A stretch of DNA of 64,000 bases from Candidatus Collierbacteria bacterium UBA2277 (GCA_002347045.1 DDWV01000002.1:8551-72550); one strand, 5' to 3'; shown: positions 1,580 to 55,381, numbered from the stretch's first letter. Notes: a model not told the origin generated them from the sequence alone. Numbers and translations are program-made.

Positions 1580-3078
<1,499 letters not shown>

Positions 3079-3269
3079 AAATTGAATTTTAAAACGTCAC
3101 TCTCTGCCACTTTTCAAATGACAAAAATTTAGTATCAAATATACTGCTACGTATATTTGGCTGCTTCACTTGTTAATGAACTTCGCTATTGTAACAACCT
3201 AAACTAAGTTTGGCAAGTACAAATCAGAACTTCCACAAAAGGAAATTTAAGAACTTCGCGAACATCAAT

Positions 3270-5387: not shown

Positions 5388-5491
5388 GCATCGTAATCAA
5401 GGTACTCCGAATTACGAGCGAATATAAGAGGAAGCGCACAATGACATATCAATAATGAATATTATTGATAGGAAGCGGAGCAAGCTCTTAT
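5388..5491. repeat. modular inverted-repeat element, copy D, in the mnmA 5' leader
   Basis: cgtaatcaaggtactccgaattacg hairpin, tataagaggaagcgca, tcaataatgaatattattga hairpin, ggaagcggagcaagctcttat. It lies directly downstream of -10 box TGGTAAAAT (5492-5500, minus). Confidence 0.65.
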
Positions 5492-7047
5492 TTTACCAAT
5501 CCCAAATTACCCTCACACAGATAAAATCCAGGTCTTTCCACCAAGCACTCCTCAAACTTTTCCATTGCCTTATCCTTATCCCCCGTCCACAAATAATACA
5601 TTCCCCAGTTATTCAAAAGCTCTGGATATTTGGGATATATTTCATCCGCCTTTTCCATTACTACCTTTCCACCCTCCAAATCATTACTCATAAGCAGTAT
5701 TGCTGCCTTATTACTCTGTGCCATCACACTATTTTGCACATAACCCGCATCATGAACAAAAAGCCTCTCCTGAGACAACCAATCAATATTCCTTACCATT
5801 GTTCTACTCAACAAAACCAATATCAATAGTAGTCCGAAGTACTTGTCCAATTTGGAAAAGATTGCGCAAAGCCAAAAAGCCTGGTCTTTTCGTACTCGAG
5901 AAGTTTTTGGCTGCAAGTCAGGACGGCTTTTGCGCAGGCAAAAGAGCGTCCGGTTTTTCAAATGGATATGTACTGCAGGACAAGAAATTGATAAGGCCAT
6001 CATCACCATCCCCAAACTCGGCCAAAACCAAAGCCTTTCACCAAATATCGTCCCAATCGGAAAAAGGAAATTTCCCGTGATCAGCAAAGGACCCCAGAAA
6101 AAGGCCTGTCCTAAAATCCACAATTTATTTCCACGAAGTTTAGTAAACAAGCTCCCAAGAGACATTGCCATCAACAAGATCCCCAACAGCACTTTCCAGT
6201 CAAACCAACCTGAAACCAACTTCAATTGATTAAAGGAATAGTCATAACTTAAATTAATAGGAAACACCACCTTTCCTATTCCAAAAGGAACCAAAGCGAA
6301 AGCATTTTGAACCCTCACCTCACTCGACACAAATCTCAAATGATTTTCCACCATAGTCGCATTGTTACTCAGGCCATTACCTCCCAACACCATCATCCGT
6401 AAAACCAAAAAGGTAACCGTTACAAACGCATAAAACATTGCTACTCCTACCTTTAGATCTTTCTTTCCCTTCCCAGTCAAAATCAAATACAACAAGACGG
6501 GCAGTCCTACAATGGCCGTTTCTTTCGACAACAAAGCCAAAAAGAAAGCAAAAGCACTCAACTCCCATTTTTTCTTATACTGCAAAATTATTGCCAATAA
6601 CACAAAACCCAAAGACAACATCTCCGCTCTCCCCACAATATTGTTCACCACCTCTGTATGAATCGGTAACACCAAAAACAACAAAGCAAAAAGGAAAGCC
6701 TCGTTTTTTGGAGATTTTTCATAATCCTCAAAAATCTTTTTAAACACTTCATACACCAAGAAGCAAACTCCAGAATAAAACAACACATTCACCAAACGAA
6801 ATCCCCAAGAATCGGTTCCCAAAACTAAGGCGTTAAGATACAAACTAAAACTAGTCAAAGGGCGATACACACCCGTCTCAGGCCCCTCTAAGTAGTAGTA
6901 TGGTCTCGTCCAAGTAGCCACCAAAGGACTTATTTTCCCCATCTCAGGATCTCCAGAGACTATTTTTAAATCATCTTGAATAAAACCGCCAAAAACACTC
7001 ACCCCATAAAGAACCAATGAAACCACAAAAATTATCCAACCCTTCAT
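5488..7047 (-). CDS. polytopic membrane protein with C-terminal TPR repeats (PMT/TMTC/ArnT-like glycosyltransferase candidate)
   Basis: About 10 TM segments, FIQDD motif near the N-terminus, TPR-like C-terminus, 519 aa. Confidence 0.5.
   Translation of the reverse strand: MKGWIIFVVSLVLYGVSVFGGFIQDDLKIVSGDPEMGKISPLVATWTRPYYYLEGPETGVYRPLTSFSLYLNALVLGTDSWGFRLVNVLFYSGVCFLVYEVFKKIFEDYEKSPKNEAFLFALLFLVLPIHTEVVNNIVGRAEMLSLGFVLLAIILQYKKKWELSAFAFFLALLSKETAIVGLPVLLYLILTGKGKKDLKVGVAMFYAFVTVTFLVLRMMVLGGNGLSNNATMVENHLRFVSSEVRVQNAFALVPFGIGKVVFPINLSYDYSFNQLKLVSGWFDWKVLLGILLMAMSLGSLFTKLRGNKLWILGQAFFWGPLLITGNFLFPIGTIFGERLWFWPSLGMVMMALSISCPAVHIHLKNRTLFCLRKSRPDLQPKTSRVRKDQAFWLCAIFSKLDKYFGLLLILVLLSRTMVRNIDWLSQERLFVHDAGYVQNSVMAQSNKAAILLMSNDLEGGKVVMEKADEIYPKYPELLNNWGMYYLWTGDKDKAMEKFEECLVERPGFYLCEGNLGLVK
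5492..5500 (-). promoter_or_regulatory. extended -10 TGGTAAAAT upstream of element D / mnmA
   Basis: Minus strand reads gattGGTAAAATaagagc. Same motif as at 822, 3270, 24660 and 31933. Confidence 0.4.
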
Positions 7048-7260
7048 TACTCAATTGTAAATCAATCTACTTTCTTAGTTCCTTAATTATCTTCCCCACT
7101 CGAAACTTGCTCTGACCTTGCTTCTCATCACGCTTAGAATGCTCTGCATTCTCAAACTTATTTTTATCTATCTCGTCAGATGTTTCCTGATACTGATTAT
7201 GAAAGCTAGGCATATAAACAGTATTCTTCTGTTTCATGCATAAATTGTAACATAAATTAC

Positions 7261-7689
7261 TTACTCAAAAATTAACTTTGGATTCCTACTAACAAACAAT
7301 TTTTCAGCCGCCTCTTCTCCTTCTCTATGTATCCTATTCCTAACATCGATATTAGTCTCCTTTAAGATACCAAATTTTTCTTCGAGGAGCTCCTTATATT
7401 GACCCAAATACAGTTCAAAACCACCATCAGCTTTCAGTCGATCTTTTATAATACCGACAAACATCTCATTAATTATCACGGACGACCCTTCCGTTTTATC
7501 AAAAAGCATTTCTCTTGCTTCATTTGCTTTACGAATTACTTTATCTCTTTCCTCCTTTGACCTCTCACCTGACACATAAAACATAAGATCTACTCCGGCA
7601 AGATAATCGTAACCAAAAGCTTTTCTTTCTTCCTCTGATATTTCTTTATTTTTTTGTCCACTAAACTCAGTAAAAAAACTCATATACAC
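7261..7689 (-). CDS. small acidic hypothetical protein (142 aa) ending ...KLIFE
   Basis: Translationally coupled (3-bp gap) to the upstream ATP-grasp gene. Glu/Lys-rich with no recognised domain. Confidence 0.55.
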   Translation of the reverse strand: MYMSFFTEFSGQKNKEISEEERKAFGYDYLAGVDLMFYVSGERSKEERDKVIRKANEAREMLFDKTEGSSVIINEMFVGIIKDRLKADGGFELYLGQYKELLEEKFGILKETNIDVRNRIHREGEEAAEKLFVSRNPKLIFE

Positions 7690-7692
7690 ATA

Positions 7693-8613
7693 CTAACACA
7701 CGATTTCTCTAGCCACGTTTATTTCCGGATGAGCCTTTTCAAACCATTTAAACTGGGCCGTTCTATTTACCTCAATTATTCTCCACATCTTTCCATCTTC
7801 ATCCCAAGCCACGTCCAACCCAGCATACTCAGCTCTCAACACCTTAGTTGCGCTCAAAGATAAACTTGCCAACTCATTCATTTGTTCTTCAGAAAAACTT
7901 GGTTTTACTTTTGATATCTCCTCTTGAAACTCCAATGTTTGGTATTTATTTTTCTGTTTATGTTTCATCATTCCTAAAACTCTATCTTGAAACACCAACA
8001 CCCTGTACCATCTTCGCACCTTCAAGACAGGCTGAATCAATACATCTCCCTCACTATATATCTGAGACAGTTTTACCAATCTTTTCATAGACTCGGCTAG
8101 TTTTACATTTTTCCCATGTGAACCAAATCTCGCTTTTACCATCACAGGAACAAAATCGCCCCTCCTTTTTGCAACTAGCTTCAGATATCTTTTCCATCCT
8201 CTCTCACCGTTAAAAGAAATAAACGGAATCACCGGTAATCCGGCTTGAGCCAACAAAACCCCTTGTTCTAATTTACCCATCAAAGGAAACAGTTTAAAAC
8301 TCTCACCATTAATTACCTTTGGCTTATTCTCTTCTATTTTTTCCACATACTCCAAAATAATCGTCTTCACCCCCAACATAGACTTTTCACCTCTCTTTGA
8401 AGCTGCCCTTGGTACAATCAATCCATACTCTTCCACTTTTATTCCATTTCCTAAATCAATGATTGGTTTTCCCTTACTACTTACCCCAAGCCTAACATGC
8501 TCATAATTCACCCTATCCACTTGGAAACCCAACTTTTCCGCCTCCTCAGCTAGCCTTTTTGGCTCATACTCGCCTTTAAATCTGGTCAAAATTAATACTT
8601 TTTTCATATACAA
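7693..8613 (-). CDS. RimK-type ATP-grasp ligase (alpha-L-glutamate-ligase-like), paralog 1
   Basis: VMVKARFGSHGKNV and GLDVAWDEDGKMWRIIEVNRTAQF resemble RimK/LysX ATP-grasp motifs. 306 aa. Confidence 0.7.
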   Translation of the reverse strand: MYMKKVLILTRFKGEYEPKRLAEEAEKLGFQVDRVNYEHVRLGVSSKGKPIIDLGNGIKVEEYGLIVPRAASKRGEKSMLGVKTIILEYVEKIEENKPKVINGESFKLFPLMGKLEQGVLLAQAGLPVIPFISFNGERGWKRYLKLVAKRRGDFVPVMVKARFGSHGKNVKLAESMKRLVKLSQIYSEGDVLIQPVLKVRRWYRVLVFQDRVLGMMKHKQKNKYQTLEFQEEISKVKPSFSEEQMNELASLSLSATKVLRAEYAGLDVAWDEDGKMWRIIEVNRTAQFKWFEKAHPEINVAREIVC

Positions 8614-8652
8614 ATTTGAATATTTCTTGGTAAATTCCGAAGTACGTGTCCT

Positions 8653-9567
8653 TTATTTCCCAAACTTACTAATACAATACTCAAGAATTATCTTCGGGGC
8701 ATTTATCTTCGTTCTCTTCTCAAACACCTTAAACTGAGGCGCCTCATTCACTTCAATTATGTAAACTTCACCAGTTTTCTTATCAATAACCAAGTCCGTT
8801 CCTGCCACCTCCACCTCCAAAACTTTTGCAGCTGCTTCTGCAACAGCAGTTACCTCTTTTGGCACTTCCTTTAGTCCCACAGAATTCCCCTGGCTTTTAT
8901 TCAAAATTAATTTCTCTTCCTTTACCTGTCTCTTAAACCCCCCAATGCATTTGTACCCAACAGTCATCACTCGATAGTCACCATCATTTTCAATATACTC
9001 TTGCACCAAAAAACCTCTCAGCGGTAATGCCTTTTCACCATTTACTTTTGCTTTCTTTTTTCTCTCTTCCAAAACAATTTTCAGTTTTCCCAAGTCTGAA
9101 TACTCTCTTATCCAAAAAGTTCCCATTCCATGTCTTCCACCTTGAGATAACTTCACAATCAAAGGGAACTTAGCTTCTCTCAAAAAAATCTCGAGGTCTT
9201 TCCAAGTTTCTATATACTCTGACTTTGGATACCTTACACCAGCCTCCTTCAACTGCCAGCTCATCACACTTTTAAAACGACGTAAAGGCCCCTCGCTTAT
9301 CAAGTACTCGTCTACCACTGGAATACTATGTTTCTTTGCATACAACTGCAACAATTTACTCCATTCCAACTCAGACCCTACAGATCGAAAATACCAGCCA
9401 TCAAAGTCACACATATCAACCTCCCCAAACATAATTTTTCCATTTACCATCTTTAGCTGTCGGTACTTAATCAAAACCAGCTCAACACCCAATAACTCTG
9501 CTTCTTTCAAAAATCGTTCTTCACTTTCATCAAAAGTAATTCTATGCAAATAAGCTATTTTCATCAT
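8653..9567 (-). CDS. RimK-type ATP-grasp ligase, paralog 2
   Basis: IVKLSQGGRHGMGTFWI and AGTDLVIDKKTGEVYIIEVNEAPQFKVF. 304 aa. 4-bp overlap with the upstream gene. Confidence 0.7.
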   Translation of the reverse strand: MMKIAYLHRITFDESEERFLKEAELLGVELVLIKYRQLKMVNGKIMFGEVDMCDFDGWYFRSVGSELEWSKLLQLYAKKHSIPVVDEYLISEGPLRRFKSVMSWQLKEAGVRYPKSEYIETWKDLEIFLREAKFPLIVKLSQGGRHGMGTFWIREYSDLGKLKIVLEERKKKAKVNGEKALPLRGFLVQEYIENDGDYRVMTVGYKCIGGFKRQVKEEKLILNKSQGNSVGLKEVPKEVTAVAEAAAKVLEVEVAGTDLVIDKKTGEVYIIEVNEAPQFKVFEKRTKINAPKIILEYCISKFGK

Positions 9568-10868
9568 TTTCTTGTTTTTATTAATCCAGGGTCAACCACA
9601 AACTCTTTCAGGTCGCGCCTTCCAATCAAAAGTTGTCTTCGTAAACCTTTTCTGTCTGTTAAATTTACCCTTGTACTTATCATTTTACCCTTTAACTTAA
9701 AGTCTAGAGCAATCAAAGTTCTCTCTTCTGTACCCAAAGAGTTTTTCACCCGTCTTTTCCATAAAGCATTTTCAGGAGTCACTAATCCAAGTTCAATTGC
9801 CAGATTTTTATCAATCGAGGTGCTTCTTGCTCCAGTATCAATTTTTGCTTCAACCTCTATCAATTTTCTTTTCCCATTTCTTACCCTCACAGTTTCAAAA
9901 ATACCAACCATCGGTTTTTCTTCACCAGAAAATCTCACTCTGTTTGCAAATTTACTTGCAAACAAAGCTTTTCCGATCCTTACACCTTTTTCTGGTTCAT
10001 CTACCTCCAGGCCCTCAACTCTCTGTAGCCGGCGCCTAAGACCTATCATATTCGCCAACTGAATCGAAAGACCTGGCTGGTCATTAAGTTCCAAAACCAC
10101 AGGCCCATTTTCTTCATCAATAAGCATGTCCACTGACAAGTAAGGAAGATTAGATACTTTTTGAGTTTTTACTGCCATTAACAAAATTCTATTCCAGTAA
10201 GGAATTGCAATTCCATTTACTTTTTTGTTAGAGTCCGGAAAATACTTTATTTGACGATTCTTATACACCCCATGAGTTGTAATCCCCGTAGCCATATCAA
10301 TTCCAAGACCAATAGCTCCCTGATGAAGGTTCGCTTTCCCAGCACTCTCTTCAGTTGGAAGTCGAAGCATGGCCATCACCGGAATCTGGTTGAACACAAT
10401 TATTCTTACATCAGGCGCCCCGCCGACCGCTAATTTCTTAAACTTTGGATGAATTTTTATTCTTTCCTCAATCATCACCTTATCAGGCAAATTGTTATGG
10501 GAATACTTTCCTTCCACAATATCAACAGCATGCAAAATTAGGTCCTCTACTCCAACCTTCTTTCCTTCTACCGTCAAAAATTTTCCCTCTTCTTTTGCCT
10601 GTCGACGAATCAACATAATTCCCTGGCCACCAAAACCTTGCACCGGTTTTATCGCAAATCCTCCATACAACTGACCCCAGTCAAAACTTCTTATCTCTGC
10701 AGGGTCAGAAAGAACTCCCATAAGTCCAGGGTGAGGTACACCAGCCTTACGAAGCATTCGTTTTGTCAAAAGCTTATCATCAGCTCTTTTTCTCGCCGAC
10801 TTTTTATTTAACAATAAATAGTCTGCCGACCTCGAATTTATTCCAAGAATATCGCTTAATCTTGGCAT
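9564..10868 (-). CDS. fusion protein: N-terminal ATP-grasp (RimK-related alpha-L-glutamate-ligase-like) plus C-terminal retropepsin-like aspartyl-protease domain (PF05618 / RimB-like, DTGA motif)
   Basis: FAIKPVQGFGGQGIMLI and VVLELNDQPGLSIQ in the ATP-grasp part. The C-terminal 130 aa are LIEVEAKIDTGARSTSIDKNLAIELGL... 434 aa. Confidence 0.7.
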   Translation of the reverse strand: MPRLSDILGINSRSADYLLLNKKSARKRADDKLLTKRMLRKAGVPHPGLMGVLSDPAEIRSFDWGQLYGGFAIKPVQGFGGQGIMLIRRQAKEEGKFLTVEGKKVGVEDLILHAVDIVEGKYSHNNLPDKVMIEERIKIHPKFKKLAVGGAPDVRIIVFNQIPVMAMLRLPTEESAGKANLHQGAIGLGIDMATGITTHGVYKNRQIKYFPDSNKKVNGIAIPYWNRILLMAVKTQKVSNLPYLSVDMLIDEENGPVVLELNDQPGLSIQLANMIGLRRRLQRVEGLEVDEPEKGVRIGKALFASKFANRVRFSGEEKPMVGIFETVRVRNGKRKLIEVEAKIDTGARSTSIDKNLAIELGLVTPENALWKRRVKNSLGTEERTLIALDFKLKGKMISTRVNLTDRKGLRRQLLIGRRDLKEFVVDPGLIKTRK

Positions 10869-10870
10869 GG

Positions 10871-11746
10871 TTATTTGGAAAGTAATTTTCTAAAACGCCA
10901 CACTTCCAGCAAACGAAGCCCTTTATATCTTCCAATAAGAAAATCTAAAGCCAAAATCAAGATTACCGATGTACCAGGGTGAAGCAACACCTGAGACTGC
11001 ACCCAAGGAGCACTCATTAGCTTGTACGCTATCAAAGCCAGGGTAACCGTCTCTACAGTCATCCACATAGATGTTCCAACACTTCTTGTAATCTGTGCTT
11101 CAATAAAAGTTTCAGCCAAAAGCACAAACAACATGATAGGGAAAATTCCAACCGTTGTTAGTTGCTTCAGTCCCAAACCCGTTGAAATAAGAAGCAAAAA
11201 CAAAACAGCCATTGAAACCATCCAAATTAAAATTGCAAGCTTTGGCAAATAAGGAACTCTAATCTTTTTAATTAACATCCTCCCAAGCGTAGCAACACCT
11301 ACAATATAAAATAACAAAATCAAGCCAGCAACTCCTCCTGTAGACAAAAACGCTACAGACAACAATGCTGGAGTAATTATTCCAAATCCTTTTACACCGA
11401 TTACCTGACGAGAAAAAGCTACCAAAGCAGCTACTAAAGGAAACAAAAACAACAAAACCAATGTATTTGGAGACACACCGGCAGCAACAGATTTTCTTAT
11501 TGCAATTTTCAAGATATCTCTACCCCACCAACTTGAAAGTTCTTGTTCTTTTAAGAGACTAGTCAACCTATCTCCTTTTTCAGTTGGCACAGTAATGTCC
11601 ACTGGTTTAGTCTCAACCACCTCTATTTCCTCAACCTCGGCTGAAACTGTTGACACAGGAATATCTTCTTTTATTGGAGCTCCCCAAACCTTAAATGGAA
11701 CTAAGAAAAAGGAAAATATTGCCAGAAACATCAATGCTTTTTTCAT
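10871..11746 (-). CDS. 7-TM membrane protein (7TM_transglut-like partner of RimK-related ligases) with signal peptide and a short extracellular acidic N-domain
   Basis: Signal peptide, about 110-aa acidic ectodomain, seven hydrophobic helices. 291 aa. 2-bp gap to the downstream ATP-grasp fusion gene. Confidence 0.55.
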   Translation of the reverse strand: MKKALMFLAIFSFFLVPFKVWGAPIKEDIPVSTVSAEVEEIEVVETKPVDITVPTEKGDRLTSLLKEQELSSWWGRDILKIAIRKSVAAGVSPNTLVLLFLFPLVAALVAFSRQVIGVKGFGIITPALLSVAFLSTGGVAGLILLFYIVGVATLGRMLIKKIRVPYLPKLAILIWMVSMAVLFLLLISTGLGLKQLTTVGIFPIMLFVLLAETFIEAQITRSVGTSMWMTVETVTLALIAYKLMSAPWVQSQVLLHPGTSVILILALDFLIGRYKGLRLLEVWRFRKLLSK

Positions 11747-11822
11747 GTCCTGTATTATACCAAAATCAAACTAATTTAGCGACAAAATACACGCTCCTCG
11801 CACAATATTTTTCTTATGTCTT

Positions 11823-12557
11823 CTACTGCTTAGCCATTACTATGAACATTTCATCATGCATCTCCCAAAACTTTCCTTGTTCTCCTGCACAAAGGGCTGC
11901 TTCAGCCGCTTTTTGTGCATCAGCATGAAAAGCCAAAGGGAAACTCTTATACTCCATACTTATTTTTTCTCCATATTTTTTCAACAAAGCCTCAATCGTT
12001 GGAAAAGAACGATTACAATAAGGGCACTCAAAGTCTGTGTACTCTACAATCTTAATTGTTGCGTTCTCCCCGCCTTTTATGTATCCATTACCATAAGGCA
12101 CTTTTGCCACTCTAGTAGAAACATCCCCAGTTGAGTCCAGCTTTACCTTATCACCGGTTCCATTTTTTAACTCTGCGTCAATCACTTTTTCAAAATCAGA
12201 CTGAGGCAAAGATCCTACAATCATAATTCCATTTATAAAAAATGTCGGCGTTCCTGACACTCCCAAATCTTGCCCTTCTTTATTTTCTGAAGCCACTCTA
12301 TCTGCCATTGCTCCATCATCTAAACACTTATTGAACTCTTTCATATCAAGACCAAAATTCTCAGCCATTGCTTTTACGGCATTCAAAGAGATACCTGATT
12401 CAGCAACTGCTGGAGTTACGGCTGTCTCAATACCGGCAACCTCTTTTCCTCCATTCATTTCTTTTACTTGGGCCGAAAGCCTACCCACAAAAAAAGAGGC
12501 TACAAGCAACATAAGTACTAATACCGGCGTATAAACTGAATTATTGTCTTTAAGCAT
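11823..12557 (-). CDS. membrane-anchored DsbA-like thiol:disulfide oxidoreductase with circularly permuted motif order
   Basis: N-terminal TM anchor. GVSGTPTFFING (cis-Pro region, normally C-terminal) comes before DFECPYC and FHADAQKAAEAALCAGEQGKFWEMHDEMF (normally N-terminal and helical insert). Confidence 0.7.
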   Translation of the reverse strand: MLKDNNSVYTPVLVLMLLVASFFVGRLSAQVKEMNGGKEVAGIETAVTPAVAESGISLNAVKAMAENFGLDMKEFNKCLDDGAMADRVASENKEGQDLGVSGTPTFFINGIMIVGSLPQSDFEKVIDAELKNGTGDKVKLDSTGDVSTRVAKVPYGNGYIKGGENATIKIVEYTDFECPYCNRSFPTIEALLKKYGEKISMEYKSFPLAFHADAQKAAEAALCAGEQGKFWEMHDEMFIVMAKQ

Positions 12558-14942: not shown

Positions 14943-15896
14943 CTACCACTCACCAACTCGCACTACACTCTCTACCAACTCTATTCCCAAAGACTCCCGA
15001 GCTCTTCTTTTAATTTCTTCAATTAATTTAACAAAGTCCTTCGCCGTTCCCCCTCCCAAGTTTTCAATTGAGTTCTGATTTGTTTTTGAAACACGAATCT
15101 TCCCTACAGAAAACCCTTTAAGGTTAAGCACTTCCCCGATTACATATCCCACATCTCTCGAAGGATAATTAAATATTTGCCTTTCTTCTTCATTAATATC
15201 TTCAAAAACTTTAAAGACAGTTTTTTTCTGTTGATTATCCCTATCTTTTTCAGACTTCACTCTATTTTTCCTCACCTTTCCCTTCTCCAACACAAAAGTA
15301 GCGTCAGTTACCACGCAACCACCTAGCTCCTTTTTTGAACCTACAGACTTTACTGCCCCATGAGAGTCAATTATAGAAATCTTTTTCAAATCCTCACCAC
15401 CCAAACCTCCAACAACAACTCCACCCACAGTCCCTTTATACACTTCAAAACTATCAAATCCATTTATTCCCAAAGAATGAAGTTTTTCTATAGCAAAGCT
15501 CAACTGCACTCCGCTATCCACAGTTACCTCCATGTTTTTACTCTCTACTCGTCTCAAAAACTCTCCCACACTTCTTCTTTGCTGTCTTACCTGAATTCGC
15601 TCACTTTTGTTGTATATCACCAGACCACGAATTCCTTTATCGGAAACTATCACACCACTTCCTTCACCGATAACAGTCATAGGTACAGAAAAAGATCGAC
15701 AGAGTCGGACAGCCTTAACTAAGTCTCCTGAAGTCTCAGTTATGTAAAATAAATCAGCAGGTCCTCCGATTTGAATTGTTGTGTGCAAAGACATTGGCTC
15801 GTTTATTCTTAGCCTATCTGCCTCCAAACACTTTGCCAAACTTTCTATATTTCCCAAAGCACTACCAATATACAACATTTCACCAAACCACTCCAA
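14943..15896 (-). CDS. murB: UDP-N-acetylenolpyruvoylglucosamine reductase MurB
   Basis: HTTIQIGGPADLF FAD-binding N-terminus and a MurB C-terminal domain. Contains a Lys-rich insertion. 317 aa. Confidence 0.75.
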   Translation of the reverse strand: MEWFGEMLYIGSALGNIESLAKCLEADRLRINEPMSLHTTIQIGGPADLFYITETSGDLVKAVRLCRSFSVPMTVIGEGSGVIVSDKGIRGLVIYNKSERIQVRQQRRSVGEFLRRVESKNMEVTVDSGVQLSFAIEKLHSLGINGFDSFEVYKGTVGGVVVGGLGGEDLKKISIIDSHGAVKSVGSKKELGGCVVTDATFVLEKGKVRKNRVKSEKDRDNQQKKTVFKVFEDINEEERQIFNYPSRDVGYVIGEVLNLKGFSVGKIRVSKTNQNSIENLGGGTAKDFVKLIEEIKRRARESLGIELVESVVRVGEW

Positions 15897-15928: not shown

Positions 15929-17773
15929 TTAGACTACCTCACAATCATCAAAACTCTCTTTTAGCATTTCTTCAATTACCCTTTTTTCAGACTCTCCTGC
16001 TATCAATAAAACTCTAATATAAAAAGTCTCGTCGTCCTCAACTTTTTCTACCTTGCTTCTTGCATCTCCGCCATTTTCACCAATTATCCTTGCCACTTTT
16101 TCAGATACACCAATCGAATTTTTTCCTCTTACTAGGACTGATGTGTACACTCCCTTCACAACTCCAGCATCGTCGAGTTTCTTTGCTACCAGCTCAAGTT
16201 CCAATCCATTTGCTAATTTATAGTACAAAGTCTCCACTCCATTCCAACATCCCAACTCAAATAACAGTTTATCAACCACATCATTTTTCAGATCTTCCAA
16301 GTTTAAAACTCCTCTTTCTCGCAACACTTTATCTATCAAAAGCACCTCTCCTTTTTCTACTTCCATATCGTGTATTAAAACTTTCATCTGTTGTTCTAAT
16401 ATCTCTCTAGTCTCCTCATTACACACCTTCAGCCACTTCTTATCGGGCATATTCCTATGCGGATCAGTAATAATTTCAACCAGCGCTGCATTTGGTATTA
16501 CGTCCCCCAGCTCCATCTCCTTGCCATTTACCAACATTTTTGTTGCCCTAAGACCCAAAAGTGGATTCAGCTTATATGCCAAGTCAATTCCTGTCGCCCC
16601 AGGTTTCATAATCACCAACTCCTCTTTAGGGGTAAAAATCATAATTCTTTGATACTTCTCAGGATTATTTTTTATTTCCTCAATATCAACTGTCAAAACG
16701 CCCCTCATGTTAAACTCCTCTTTTTCTTCCGTCGTAATCGCAATTTCAACCAAACCAGCACCAAATCTGTATTTTTCGTGTATTGCACTATATCCATTCA
16801 TCTCGGGTTTTACCAAAGTATCATCTCCACCTCCATTGGTACAAAGCTTATCTCCAAAATTCGCTCTCAACTCACCCATAGCGCGGTAACATTCCCCCAA
16901 ATCATTATTGTCACCAAGCACTACTCGAAAACTGATCACGTCCGTAATATCAGAAAACTCCTTTGGCAAAGAATCAGACCTCATCGCCGACATCCTTTGT
17001 TTTTCTGCCAACTCCCAGTATCCTCCAATTTGATGCCTAACTTCAGCTTTCACACCCGCCTCGTTCAAAGTAGACTGAATCTCTTCTTTGGTATTCCTAA
17101 TAAACTCTGGATCAAGTCTTGGGTCGCTATCAATTGCTTCTTTTACTCTCTGATATCTTTCAGGATCCATATAAAAAAATGAAATGTCTGCCAAAGAGTT
17201 TTTTATCTGCCACAACCCCAACGATTCTGCCAAAGGTACATACATTGTCAAAGTCTCTTTTGCCTTCGCCATCTTTTTTTCTTTTGAAAATCCTTTACCC
17301 AAAGGACCATCTTCCATTGTCTTCATGTTGTGCAACCTATCAGCAAACTTTATCATCGACACTCTGAGCTCTACTCTAGCTTTTCTTGCCAACTTCTTCA
17401 GTGTCTCAAAATCATTATCCTTGCCAGTTGGTGATTTAAATTTACTTACTCCATCAACCGAATGTGCCACCCTTGGACTAAACATATCTTCAATCAGCTC
17501 TAAATTTATAGCATCAGGATGATCTTCAACAGTGTCATGCAGAATCCCCGCTATTACCGTATCCTCATCACACCCCCACTCAATAAGCAACTCCGCAACC
17601 GCTATACAGTGATTTACATAAGGCTCACCTGTAGTTTTTCTAAAGTCATTTTTATGAATTTCTTCGGCCAGACCTAAGGCCAATCTTTCTTTCTGGGATA
17701 ACTTTGCACAAAACTCATTTTTCTCAATTTTAAAATCAGCTCCCCTTTTTATATCTACAGCAGTTTCAGTCAT
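15929..17773 (-). CDS. rel: bifunctional (p)ppGpp synthetase/hydrolase Rel/SpoT homolog
   Basis: HD motif HDTVEDH, RLHNM, synthetase domain, TGS domain. 614 aa. Confidence 0.85.
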   Translation of the reverse strand: MTETAVDIKRGADFKIEKNEFCAKLSQKERLALGLAEEIHKNDFRKTTGEPYVNHCIAVAELLIEWGCDEDTVIAGILHDTVEDHPDAINLELIEDMFSPRVAHSVDGVSKFKSPTGKDNDFETLKKLARKARVELRVSMIKFADRLHNMKTMEDGPLGKGFSKEKKMAKAKETLTMYVPLAESLGLWQIKNSLADISFFYMDPERYQRVKEAIDSDPRLDPEFIRNTKEEIQSTLNEAGVKAEVRHQIGGYWELAEKQRMSAMRSDSLPKEFSDITDVISFRVVLGDNNDLGECYRAMGELRANFGDKLCTNGGGDDTLVKPEMNGYSAIHEKYRFGAGLVEIAITTEEKEEFNMRGVLTVDIEEIKNNPEKYQRIMIFTPKEELVIMKPGATGIDLAYKLNPLLGLRATKMLVNGKEMELGDVIPNAALVEIITDPHRNMPDKKWLKVCNEETREILEQQMKVLIHDMEVEKGEVLLIDKVLRERGVLNLEDLKNDVVDKLLFELGCWNGVETLYYKLANGLELELVAKKLDDAGVVKGVYTSVLVRGKNSIGVSEKVARIIGENGGDARSKVEKVEDDETFYIRVLLIAGESEKRVIEEMLKESFDDCEVV

Positions 17774-55302: not shown

Positions 55303-55307
55303 ACTTG

Positions 55308-55381
55308 TGGGCCGACTAGGATTCGAACCTAGGACATCGAAGGTATAAGCTTCGCGCTCTAACCAGCTGAGCTATCGGCCC
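55308..55381 (-). tRNA. tRNA-Ile with anticodon TAT (UAU)
   Basis: Reverse complement GGGCCGA-TA-GCTC-AGCTGGTTA-GAGC-G-CGAAG-CTTATAC-CTTCG-ATGTC-CTAGG-TTCGAAT-CCTAG-TCGGCCC-A. Perfect cloverleaf, U33, A37. Confidence 0.85.

Follow-up and report, generated by a model that had tools for sequence, protein, structure and literature searches.

In a window of 64,000 nucleotides (nt) from Candidatus Collierbacteria bacterium UBA2277 (GCA_002347045.1, DDWV01000002.1:8551-72550; all positions are counted from its first letter), five minus-strand genes at 7261-11746 contain a two-gene core, in which the gene of a seven-transmembrane (7-TM) protein is followed directly by the gene of an ATP-grasp ligase fused to a retropepsin-like protease. 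This pair is the invariant unit of the locus and is conserved across Microgenomates. We read the locus, with a probability of about 50%, as a Rlo/Rim-type ligase-retropepsin system condensed to this two-gene core and accompanied by accessory ligases, which would act as a membrane-tethered builder and trimmer of acidic chains resembling poly-alpha-glutamate. The glutamate chemistry appears less certain than the general model. The same three protein families make up the rloABC system of Pseudomonas aeruginosa and P. fluorescens (Lormand et al., mBio 2025; PMC12239564). The features of the locus are the following, with lengths in amino acids (aa) and open reading frame abbreviated as ORF:

11754-11759, minus strand: TATAAT -10 box, read from the sequence, its end 7 nt ahead of the 7-TM ATG
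10871-11746, minus strand: 7-TM gene, 291 aa
9564-10868, minus strand: fusion gene (ligase plus retropepsin), 434 aa, predicted bifunctional enzyme with an RloC-type ATP-grasp and a retropepsin-like protease (PF14397, TIGR02291, PF05618)
10014-10817, minus strand: ATP-grasp ligase domain of the fusion protein, aa 18-285, the stretch matched in Pfam
9576-9911, minus strand: retropepsin-like protease domain of the fusion protein, aa 320-431, with DTGA at 9828-9839, from the translations
8653-9567, minus strand: RKa, RimK-family ligase, 304 aa
7693-8613, minus strand: RKb, second RimK-family ligase, 306 aa, TTG start with an ATG two codons further in
7261-7689, minus strand: 142-aa ORF, GTG start with an ATG two codons further in, a lineage-specific gene that is probably co-transcribed here but lies outside the conserved system
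7067-7237, minus strand: conserved Lys-rich ORF of 56 aa, with a TACAAT box ending 6 nt before its ATG

ORF calling recovered the five genes of the block exactly where the initial annotation had placed them. The block has an even base composition and the neighbouring genes all lie on the same strand. Gaps or overlaps of 2-4 bp had been claimed between all five, which holds for three junctions (a 2-nt gap between the 7-TM and fusion genes, a 4-nt overlap of the RKa start with the fusion stop, and a 3-nt gap between RKb and the 142-aa ORF) but not for RKa and RKb, which are separated by 39 nt. A genome scan with one genome per species yielded 567 confirmed stretches, and the best 80 of these 567 all encode a full-length fusion protein with 42-80% identity to the window protein. 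They come from Patescibacteria, among them Collier-, Woese-, Blackburn- and Shapirobacteria. Complete Woesebacteria genomes are among the carriers of the locus (CP066693, CP066686, OY970314). A fusion of the same length with 62-83% identity is found in more than 120 database clusters, the closest being named Candidatus Collierbacteria or Microgenomates. The fusion gene is directly preceded by the 7-TM gene in 77 of the 78 Microgenomates loci with room to see it. Synteny of the entire five-gene block, proposed earlier as a check, is found for this pair only; the RimK-like ligases are variable and the 142-aa gene is absent from 86 other loci. Outside the block only mnmA, dsbA and leuS recur (19, 14 and 6 of 82 loci, respectively). 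In the closest relatives the fusion protein is about as conserved as LeuRS. For instance, in L007 (related loci carry numbers preceded by L) the fusion protein is 80% and LeuRS 74% identical.

The ligase half of the fusion protein matches PF14397 (ATPgrasp_ST) over residues 18-285 with an E-value of 4e-65 (220 bits, cut-off 31.4). Its best NCBIfam match is TIGR02291 (alpha-L-glutamate ligase-like), which we take to be the RloC family, an equation of our own that is not stated in the rloABC paper; this match covers residues 5-289 at 8e-84, with 281.3 bits that remain under the cut-off of 314.2. Structure prediction, another check proposed in the initial annotation, gave two folded domains in an AlphaFold2 model built from 37 sequences (predicted local distance difference test, pLDDT, of 79.7): an ATP-grasp at about residues 30-300 and a beta-rich domain at 320-430, connected by a low-confidence linker at 306-316. 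The best structural matches of the ligase domain are, in order, RimK (5zk6, 4iwx, 5zct, 7qys, 7qyr), ArgX/LysX and cyanophycin synthetase, all of which ligate amino acids onto peptide or protein carboxylates. The alignment to RimK only sets in at RimK residue 88-108, and the window protein hence lacks the N-terminal pre-ATP-grasp domain. The first 45 residues of the ligase (aa 1-45) are basic, with 12 K/R. At the level of sequence the ligase domain is shown to retain its ATP and Mg residues, with K74, E134, D247, E260 and N262 invariant. The fusion protein comprises neither a transmembrane segment nor a Cys, and it must, by prediction, be cytoplasmic.

The protease half matches PF05618 with an E-value of 7e-10 which, together with weak matches to the RloA1, RloA2 and RloA3 models (23-27 bits against cut-offs of 210-280), covers residues 371-431. 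The domain aligns by sequence to the solved RloA-type PDB chains 9g58, 9g59 and 2pma in three motifs: AK(I/L/M)DTGA, (E/K/A)R-x-(V/L)I and NLT(D/N)R. Invariant positions among 37 sequences are K342, D344, G346, A347, R383, R406 and I415-L420 (IGRRDL), while T345 of the DTGA motif is kept in at least 90% of them. K342, D344, R383 and R406 align to the RloA-type motifs K-x-DTGA, [KE]R-P and NLT[DN]R. In 9g58, the DTG-to-Arg spacings of 66 and 89 residues equal those of D48-R114 and D48-R137 in RloA, and from this identical spacing R383 would correspond to R114 and R406 to R137. The substitutions R114A and R137A in RloA abolish both poly-Glu cleavage and complementation, and K46, R114 and R137 are the basic residues required for poly-Glu cleavage (PMC12239564). 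According to the alignment, these basic residues appear to be kept in the fusion protease. The domain is strongly basic (27 K+R versus 14 D+E). It is internal to the polypeptide (aa 320-431), with neither a signal peptide nor a hydrophobic segment ahead of it. No runs of at least five Asp or Glu and no acidic C-termini were found among the proteins encoded in the window; a post-translational origin of the protease substrate is therefore probable.

The 7-TM protein matches PF14402 (7TM_transglut) in Pfam over residues 95-288 (5.9e-26, 91.9 bits). The NCBIfam model of RloB (NF052267) scores 58.7 bits against a cut-off of 900 and is covered at model positions 313-506 of 508 only. Judged from these matches, the protein is the counterpart of the C-terminal module of RloB. 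Domain searches gave no match to a transglutaminase domain, which confirms the short 7-TM partner without such a domain that had been proposed before, and the short form is conserved in relatives. Its N-terminus is signal-like, around 70 aa form a conserved segment outside the cytoplasm, and the protein further comprises seven helices and a basic tail on the cytoplasmic side. An N-out/C-in topology is predicted from hydropathy and from the positive-inside rule as applied to the loops and the tail. It is the only protein of the block with hydrophobic segments. Its AlphaFold2 model, from which the helices were drawn, is of low confidence (pLDDT 56.7). Conserved polar residues are R113, Q114, E212, E216, E232 and D268.

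The architectures of relatives of the fusion protein were surveyed with HMMER in 1.84 billion representatives. This yielded 2101 relatives, of which the best 150, all representatives of clusters at 50% identity, were classified as follows:

Ligase-retropepsin: 49 of 150
Ligase-(retropepsin)-MATCAP carboxypeptidase: about 46 of 150
Ligase alone: 45 of 150
7-TM protein fused N-terminally to the ligase: 8 of 150, one of them also with Transglut_core
Ligase-retropepsin-YdjC: 1 of 150
Ligase with a match to the transglutaminase-region query (a match not checked against Pfam): 1 of 150

A ligase-retropepsin fusion is present in at least 85 of the best 150 representatives. Fusions found in other lineages are 7TM_transglut with ATPgrasp_ST, Transglut_core with 7TM and ATPgrasp_ST, and ATPgrasp_ST with retropepsin and MATCAP. 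The distant locus L089 from a groundwater metagenome (AMFJ01026683.1, 101-6166) encodes a PKD+7TM_transglut protein and an 800-aa protein of ATP-grasp, retropepsin and MATCAP, followed by two RimK-like ligases. With this order the same system logic recurs with different accretions. A metagenome scan with the MATCAP triple fusion returned its own contig as the sole match.

The domain assignments of the initial annotation, including PF08443 for both RKa and RKb, were borne out, as was its recognition of the trio of ligase, PF05618 protease and 7TM_transglut protein. Its description of this trio as experimentally uncharacterised is outdated, since these three proteins are those of rloABC. The RloA proteases, which are dimeric retropepsins and are secreted, cleave at least eight consecutive Glu residues, and deletion of rloB or rloC suppresses a triple rloA protease mutant of P. 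aeruginosa (PMC12239564). rloABC has a role in hypo-osmotic tolerance, rlo mutants show cell-shape and beta-lactam phenotypes, and 96% of RloB matches come from Proteobacteria (PMC12239564). The window system shares with rloABC the three families, i.e., a PF14397/TIGR02291-type ligase (RloC), a PF14402 7-TM protein (RloB) and a PF05618 DTGA retropepsin (RloA), and its protease keeps the Lys and Arg residues that were shown to bind poly-Glu in RloA. RloA is a stand-alone periplasmic protein with a signal peptide and a conserved disulfide, whereas the window protease is attached C-terminally to the ligase and is predicted to be cytoplasmic; its lack of Cys is unlike periplasmic RloA and like cytoplasmic RimB (PMC12239564). 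The first Asp-to-Arg spacing is 39 residues in the fusion protein compared to 66, which makes the flap around 27 residues shorter. The conserved segment of around 70 aa in the 7-TM protein takes the place of the inactive transglutaminase domain of RloB. Related Microgenomates-type loci also add one to three RimK-type ligases, and all curated NCBIfam Rlo models score far under their cut-offs on the window proteins. Finally, the host belongs to Microgenomates, in the candidate phyla radiation, and is not a proteobacterium; this placement is drawn from the names of the closest protein relatives and from the bacterial 16S rRNA gene in the window. Bacteria of this radiation presumably lack a periplasm.

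The second known relative is the Rim system. RimK makes poly-alpha-Glu, while RimB cuts poly-Glu from ribosomal protein S6 and stimulates synthesis by RimK (Little et al., JBC 2025; PMC11957791). A RimBK hybrid from Desulfotalea has been purified and is proteolytically active, and such hybrids occur in 12% of rim-bearing genomes (PMC11957791). The ligase-protease fusion that had been put forward as new is real and conserved, but with this purified hybrid and the numerous fusions in the survey it is not without precedent. As in RimBK, a cytoplasmic ATP-grasp is physically coupled to a retropepsin, and RKa and RKb are RimK-family proteins by Pfam. In RimBK, however, the protease is N-terminal to a true three-domain RimK, while in the window protein it follows an RloC-type ligase without the pre-ATP-grasp domain. 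The opposite domain order and the other ATP-grasp subfamily argue for a fusion event independent from that of RimBK. Rim systems moreover have no membrane partner, in contrast to the 7-TM partner here, and rpsF (S6) is absent from the window. A third likeness is one of logic only, not of orthology. TTL/TTLL ATP-grasps add amino acids to the C-terminus of tubulin, and dedicated peptidases such as the MATCAP carboxypeptidase remove them. Relatives of the fusion protein carry MATCAP (PF08014) in the same polypeptide, whereas the window protein has no such domain. No literature was found on a fusion of RloC with a retropepsin, nor on this system in bacteria of the candidate phyla radiation.

In the working model that we favor, the ligase would dock on the cytoplasmic face of the 7-TM protein and add amino acids, most probably L-Glu in alpha linkage, to a carboxylate acceptor. 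The resulting acidic chain would be either free or attached to a protein or envelope component. The fused protease, acting as a dimer, would cut such chains and thereby limit their length or release and recycle them; stimulation of the ligases, like that of RimK by RimB, may be a further role. The 7-TM protein could pass on or present the product at the membrane, or gate the enzyme by the state of the envelope. RKa and RKb would prime, extend or diversify the chain. Several points weigh against this model. The Glu specificity is extrapolated from the residues of the protease and from RimK rather than from the biochemistry of RloC-type ligases. The ligase has no counterpart of the N-terminal domain of RimK and LysX, so its acceptor may be quite different. 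The name of PF14397, which Pfam describes as a ‘sugar-transfer associated’ ATP-grasp, points towards surface polysaccharide chemistry. The protease is periplasmic in Pseudomonas and, by prediction, cytoplasmic here, and the logic of the two systems may differ. The low-confidence model of the 7-TM protein supports no statement on a channel or a binding site. Lastly, RimK-like genes are missing from the vicinity in 11 of 70 loci and lie on the opposite strand in three; the function of the accessory ligases may be a separate one.

The ligase and 7-TM pair is not confined to Proteobacteria, as it forms the highly conserved core of the locus in a class of ultra-small bacteria. The locus further suggests that the protease can act on the cytoplasmic side and that the transglutaminase domain is dispensable. 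In evolution, peptidases (retropepsin or MATCAP) and the 7-TM protein have repeatedly become fusion partners of the ligase. Together, these points constrain models towards a peptide chain that is made at the membrane and trimmed by dedicated peptidases. As a minimal two-protein system with a soluble enzyme devoid of cysteines, the core is suited to heterologous reconstitution. Its function is conserved and probably important in the candidate phyla radiation, and the current annotations go no further than ‘alpha-L-glutamate ligase-like protein’ or ‘7TM domain-containing protein’.

RKa matches PF08443 with an E-value of 1.6e-20 (74 bits, Pfam threshold 21) and RKb with 4.8e-11 (43 bits, threshold 21). 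Both remain under the NCBIfam rimK_fam cut-off of 143.4 bits (90.5 bits at 1e-25 for RKa, 65.3 bits for RKb). In RKb, the pre-ATP-grasp domain RimK_N is recognised by PF18030 (4e-6). The nearest PDB chains to RKa by sequence are RimK (7qys/7qyr) and ArgX (3vpb); the more divergent RKb has no PDB match by sequence. The D..E.N Mg triad is conserved in RKa, in RKb and in all RimK-like copies of related loci. The orthologue groups comprise 16 members for RKa and 11 for RKb, each including the window copy. Across 70 loci, the number of RimK-like domains within 5 kb downstream of the fusion gene is zero in 11, one in 24, two in 31 and three in four. The extra ligase paralogs noted earlier are real and conserved, but an expansion to three is not a fixed trait. 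The RimK-like ligases of related loci fall into at least seven sequence clusters, and some are fused in tandem (in L068, for instance, into a protein of 613 aa). In 65 of 68 loci the first RimK-like gene shares the strand of the fusion gene, and in 48 of these 65 it starts at most 50 nt from the fusion stop; L003, L019 and L061 have it on the opposite strand. RimK-like ligases are hence a frequent, usually operonic and variable accessory with zero to three copies.

This variability leaves some room for an alternative in which the 7-TM and fusion proteins form an Rlo-like envelope module of their own, and RKa and RKb, as ordinary RimK enzymes, would independently glutamylate a ribosomal protein, either S6 or another one. 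The changing copy number, the diversity of the clusters and the three loci with opposite strands fit this alternative, as do the apparently full three-domain RimK layout of RKa and RKb, including RimK_N, and the circumstance that around 30 related loci adjoin secE-nusG-rplKAJL. Yet, the RimK-like gene usually follows the fusion gene closely on the same strand or overlaps it, as with the 4-nt overlap in the window, and the distant L089 again has two RimK-like genes directly downstream of a different fusion. RimB-type proteases are also known to bind and stimulate RimK (PMC11957791), and the rimK_fam scores under the cut-off do not favor ordinary RimK enzymes. We consider the alternative unlikely. 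With regard to the ribosomal neighbourhood, the ligase cluster of around 30 Woesebacteria-type loci (e.g., L022, 9233-15128) is convergent with secE-nusG-rplK-rplA-rplJ-rplL, gene names that were judged by eye. This may reflect an inherited gene order or hint at a ribosomal link.

Decoration of the envelope, in which the ligases load amino acids on a lipid-linked glycan, a peptidoglycan precursor or a surface polymer while the 7-TM protein flips or holds the lipid-linked intermediate, is distinctly improbable in our judgement. The sugar-transfer description of PF14397 and the cell-shape and beta-lactam phenotypes of P. aeruginosa rlo mutants (PMC12239564) are in line with it. A PMT_2/TMTC-type glycosyltransferase is encoded downstream in the window and in 3 of 82 non-duplicate relatives; Ddl, a Mur ligase and alanine racemase are encoded upstream in L003, and a MurB-like gene is found in the window. 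However, none of these neighbours is conserved with the core, and the glycosyltransferase gene has its own promoter-like box. The fused protease retains residues for poly-Glu binding, the MATCAP-type carboxypeptidase in relatives points to peptide-chain chemistry, and the nearest structures are ligases acting on the C-terminus of peptides or proteins.

A more speculative possibility, to which we give little credence, is a ribosome-independent line for the assembly and export of peptides. Each ATP-grasp would account for one residue or phase, the retropepsin would set the length or release the product, and the 7-TM protein would deliver it to the surface. A membrane-gated ‘osmolyte capacitor’ for glutamate or poly-glutamate would be an equal variant of this possibility. 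If either were true, the Rlo family would gain a biochemical function and a conserved envelope or osmotic process would be newly recognised in Microgenomates.

The initial annotation had regarded the acidic 142-aa protein with its C-terminal Glu as a possible substrate or carrier and had pointed to LysX-type ligases and LysW-like carriers. A reading of this kind, in which the protein is a carrier, or the precursor of a ribosomally synthesized and post-translationally modified peptide, and is loaded via its C-terminal Glu by the three ligases, is very improbable. In its favor, the gene is real, follows RKb after 3 nt without a promoter box of its own and keeps the ...FE end in its only relative. 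Against it, the gene is absent from 86 other related loci, the protein has essentially no homologues in 5.8 billion proteins, and no conserved small ORF accompanies the core anywhere. As a general substrate or carrier, the protein was rejected on its lack of conservation. BLAST and tblastn found no homologues in 86 related loci, even at E = 10, and the 5.8 billion proteins comprise only the protein itself and one fragment with 73% identity from a sister species. In this sister species (L087), the gene of the fragment is in the same position, within the order RKb, 142-aa gene, 56-aa ORF and glycosyltransferase. The two genes differ in 26 synonymous and 28 non-synonymous codons, which indicates that the ORF is a real coding gene. 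The C-terminus (...LIFE) is as described, but the acidity is only mild (29 D+E versus 24 K+R). The protein has no Cys, no zinc ribbon and no family match in Pfam, NCBIfam or PADLOC. In L007, mnmA directly follows RKb without a 142-aa gene, and the interval between RKb and mnmA is a variable spot, with two short ORFs in L009 and a 220-aa gene in L010. Judged by this distribution, the 142-aa protein is a strain-level passenger.

Comparison with the known carrier systems leads in the same direction. The ligases share the RimK-family ATP-grasp with LysX and ArgX, which are among the best structural matches, but the locus encodes no LysW-like zinc-ribbon carrier, and no LysZ, LysY, LysJ or LysK genes are found near it. 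The LysX equivalog TIGR02144 scores 68, 33.7 and 25.7 bits for the three ligases against a cut-off of 275.6, and the graspetide maturase model TIGR04187 scores at most 26.6 bits against 350. A clustering of all neighbouring ORFs of related loci revealed no conserved small precursor ORF that accompanies the core. Models of anti-phage defence (PADLOC) gave no match for six proteins.

Homologues of the 56-aa ORF (MKQKNTVY..HNQ[FY]..K[EQ]GQS.[FY]R), which has 12 invariant columns and no family match, are located downstream of RKb in L005/L006, L008, L009, L010 and L087. The ORF is described here as a neighbour of the system. A second family of small ORFs, ending in ..GITGKEAPKL(D/E)VVGGGGEKRG, occurs after RKb in L008 (10283-10525), L009 (6276-6491) and L012 (10438-10647). 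In L008 and L009 there is an overlap, in another frame, with the longest ORF containing the gene of the 56-aa family, at the 5' end of that longest ORF.

The TATAAT box at 11754-11759 likely drives transcription of the operon as a leaderless mRNA. Among 77 related loci, 31 have a TA[TA]AAT box whose end lies 6-7 nt ahead of the 7-TM start, compared to at most three for any other distance. No spacer-separated Shine-Dalgarno sequence precedes the 7-TM ATG; the sole motif of this kind, AGGA, ends 1 nt before it. The fusion gene, RKa, RKb and the 142-aa gene have no leaderless-spaced -10 box ahead of them, whereas the 56-aa ORF and the glycosyltransferase gene further downstream each have a -10-type box of their own. 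A leaderless transcript probably spans the 7-TM gene through the 142-aa gene. A scan for sigma-70 and terminator consensus sequences was uninformative (20 promoter-like sites versus 22.7 expected), and it ignores leaderless-spaced -10 boxes. Across the window as a whole, the start codons of around 17 of the 47 long ORFs are preceded by a TA[TAC]AAT box whose end is 4-9 nt away, motifs resembling Shine-Dalgarno sequences are almost absent, and genes internal to operons have neither signal. This suggests that leaderless mRNAs are widespread in this genome. In 16 related loci (e.g., L028, 5893-6108), a 72-aa gene for a MerR/HTH_17 DNA-binding protein directly precedes the 7-TM gene; the window lacks this gene, which may encode a dedicated regulator.

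Many contigs of metagenome-assembled genomes that bear the locus (L007, L010, L012, L033, L040 and others) are titled Pseudomonadales, Gammaproteobacteria, Spirochaetia, Bathyarchaeia or Woesearchaeota. Their record taxonomy is probably wrong, as gene content and synteny match those of metagenome-assembled genomes of Collierbacteria and Woesebacteria. The PMT_2/TMTC-like membrane glycosyltransferase of the window is encoded at 5488-7047 (minus strand) and has a C-terminal TPR; the three relatives with this gene in the same place are L005, L009 and L016, to which L087 can be added. A DsbA-like protein is encoded at 11823-12557 (minus strand), and the gene adjoins the 7-TM gene in about 15 relatives. 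Its Pfam order is permuted, with the C-terminal DSBA half at aa 60-126 and the thioredoxin half with CPYC at aa 159-238, which may represent a circular permutation or two partial domains. Other genes on the minus strand of the window are a complete 16S rRNA gene (1580-3079), the MurB-like reductase (14943-15896) and an HD/RelA-SpoT/TGS protein (15929-17773). The window also has a tRNA-Ile with anticodon TAT (UAU) at 55307-55381 (minus strand) alongside a tRNA-Ile(GAT) at 734-808, an uncommon bacterial route to the AUA codon.

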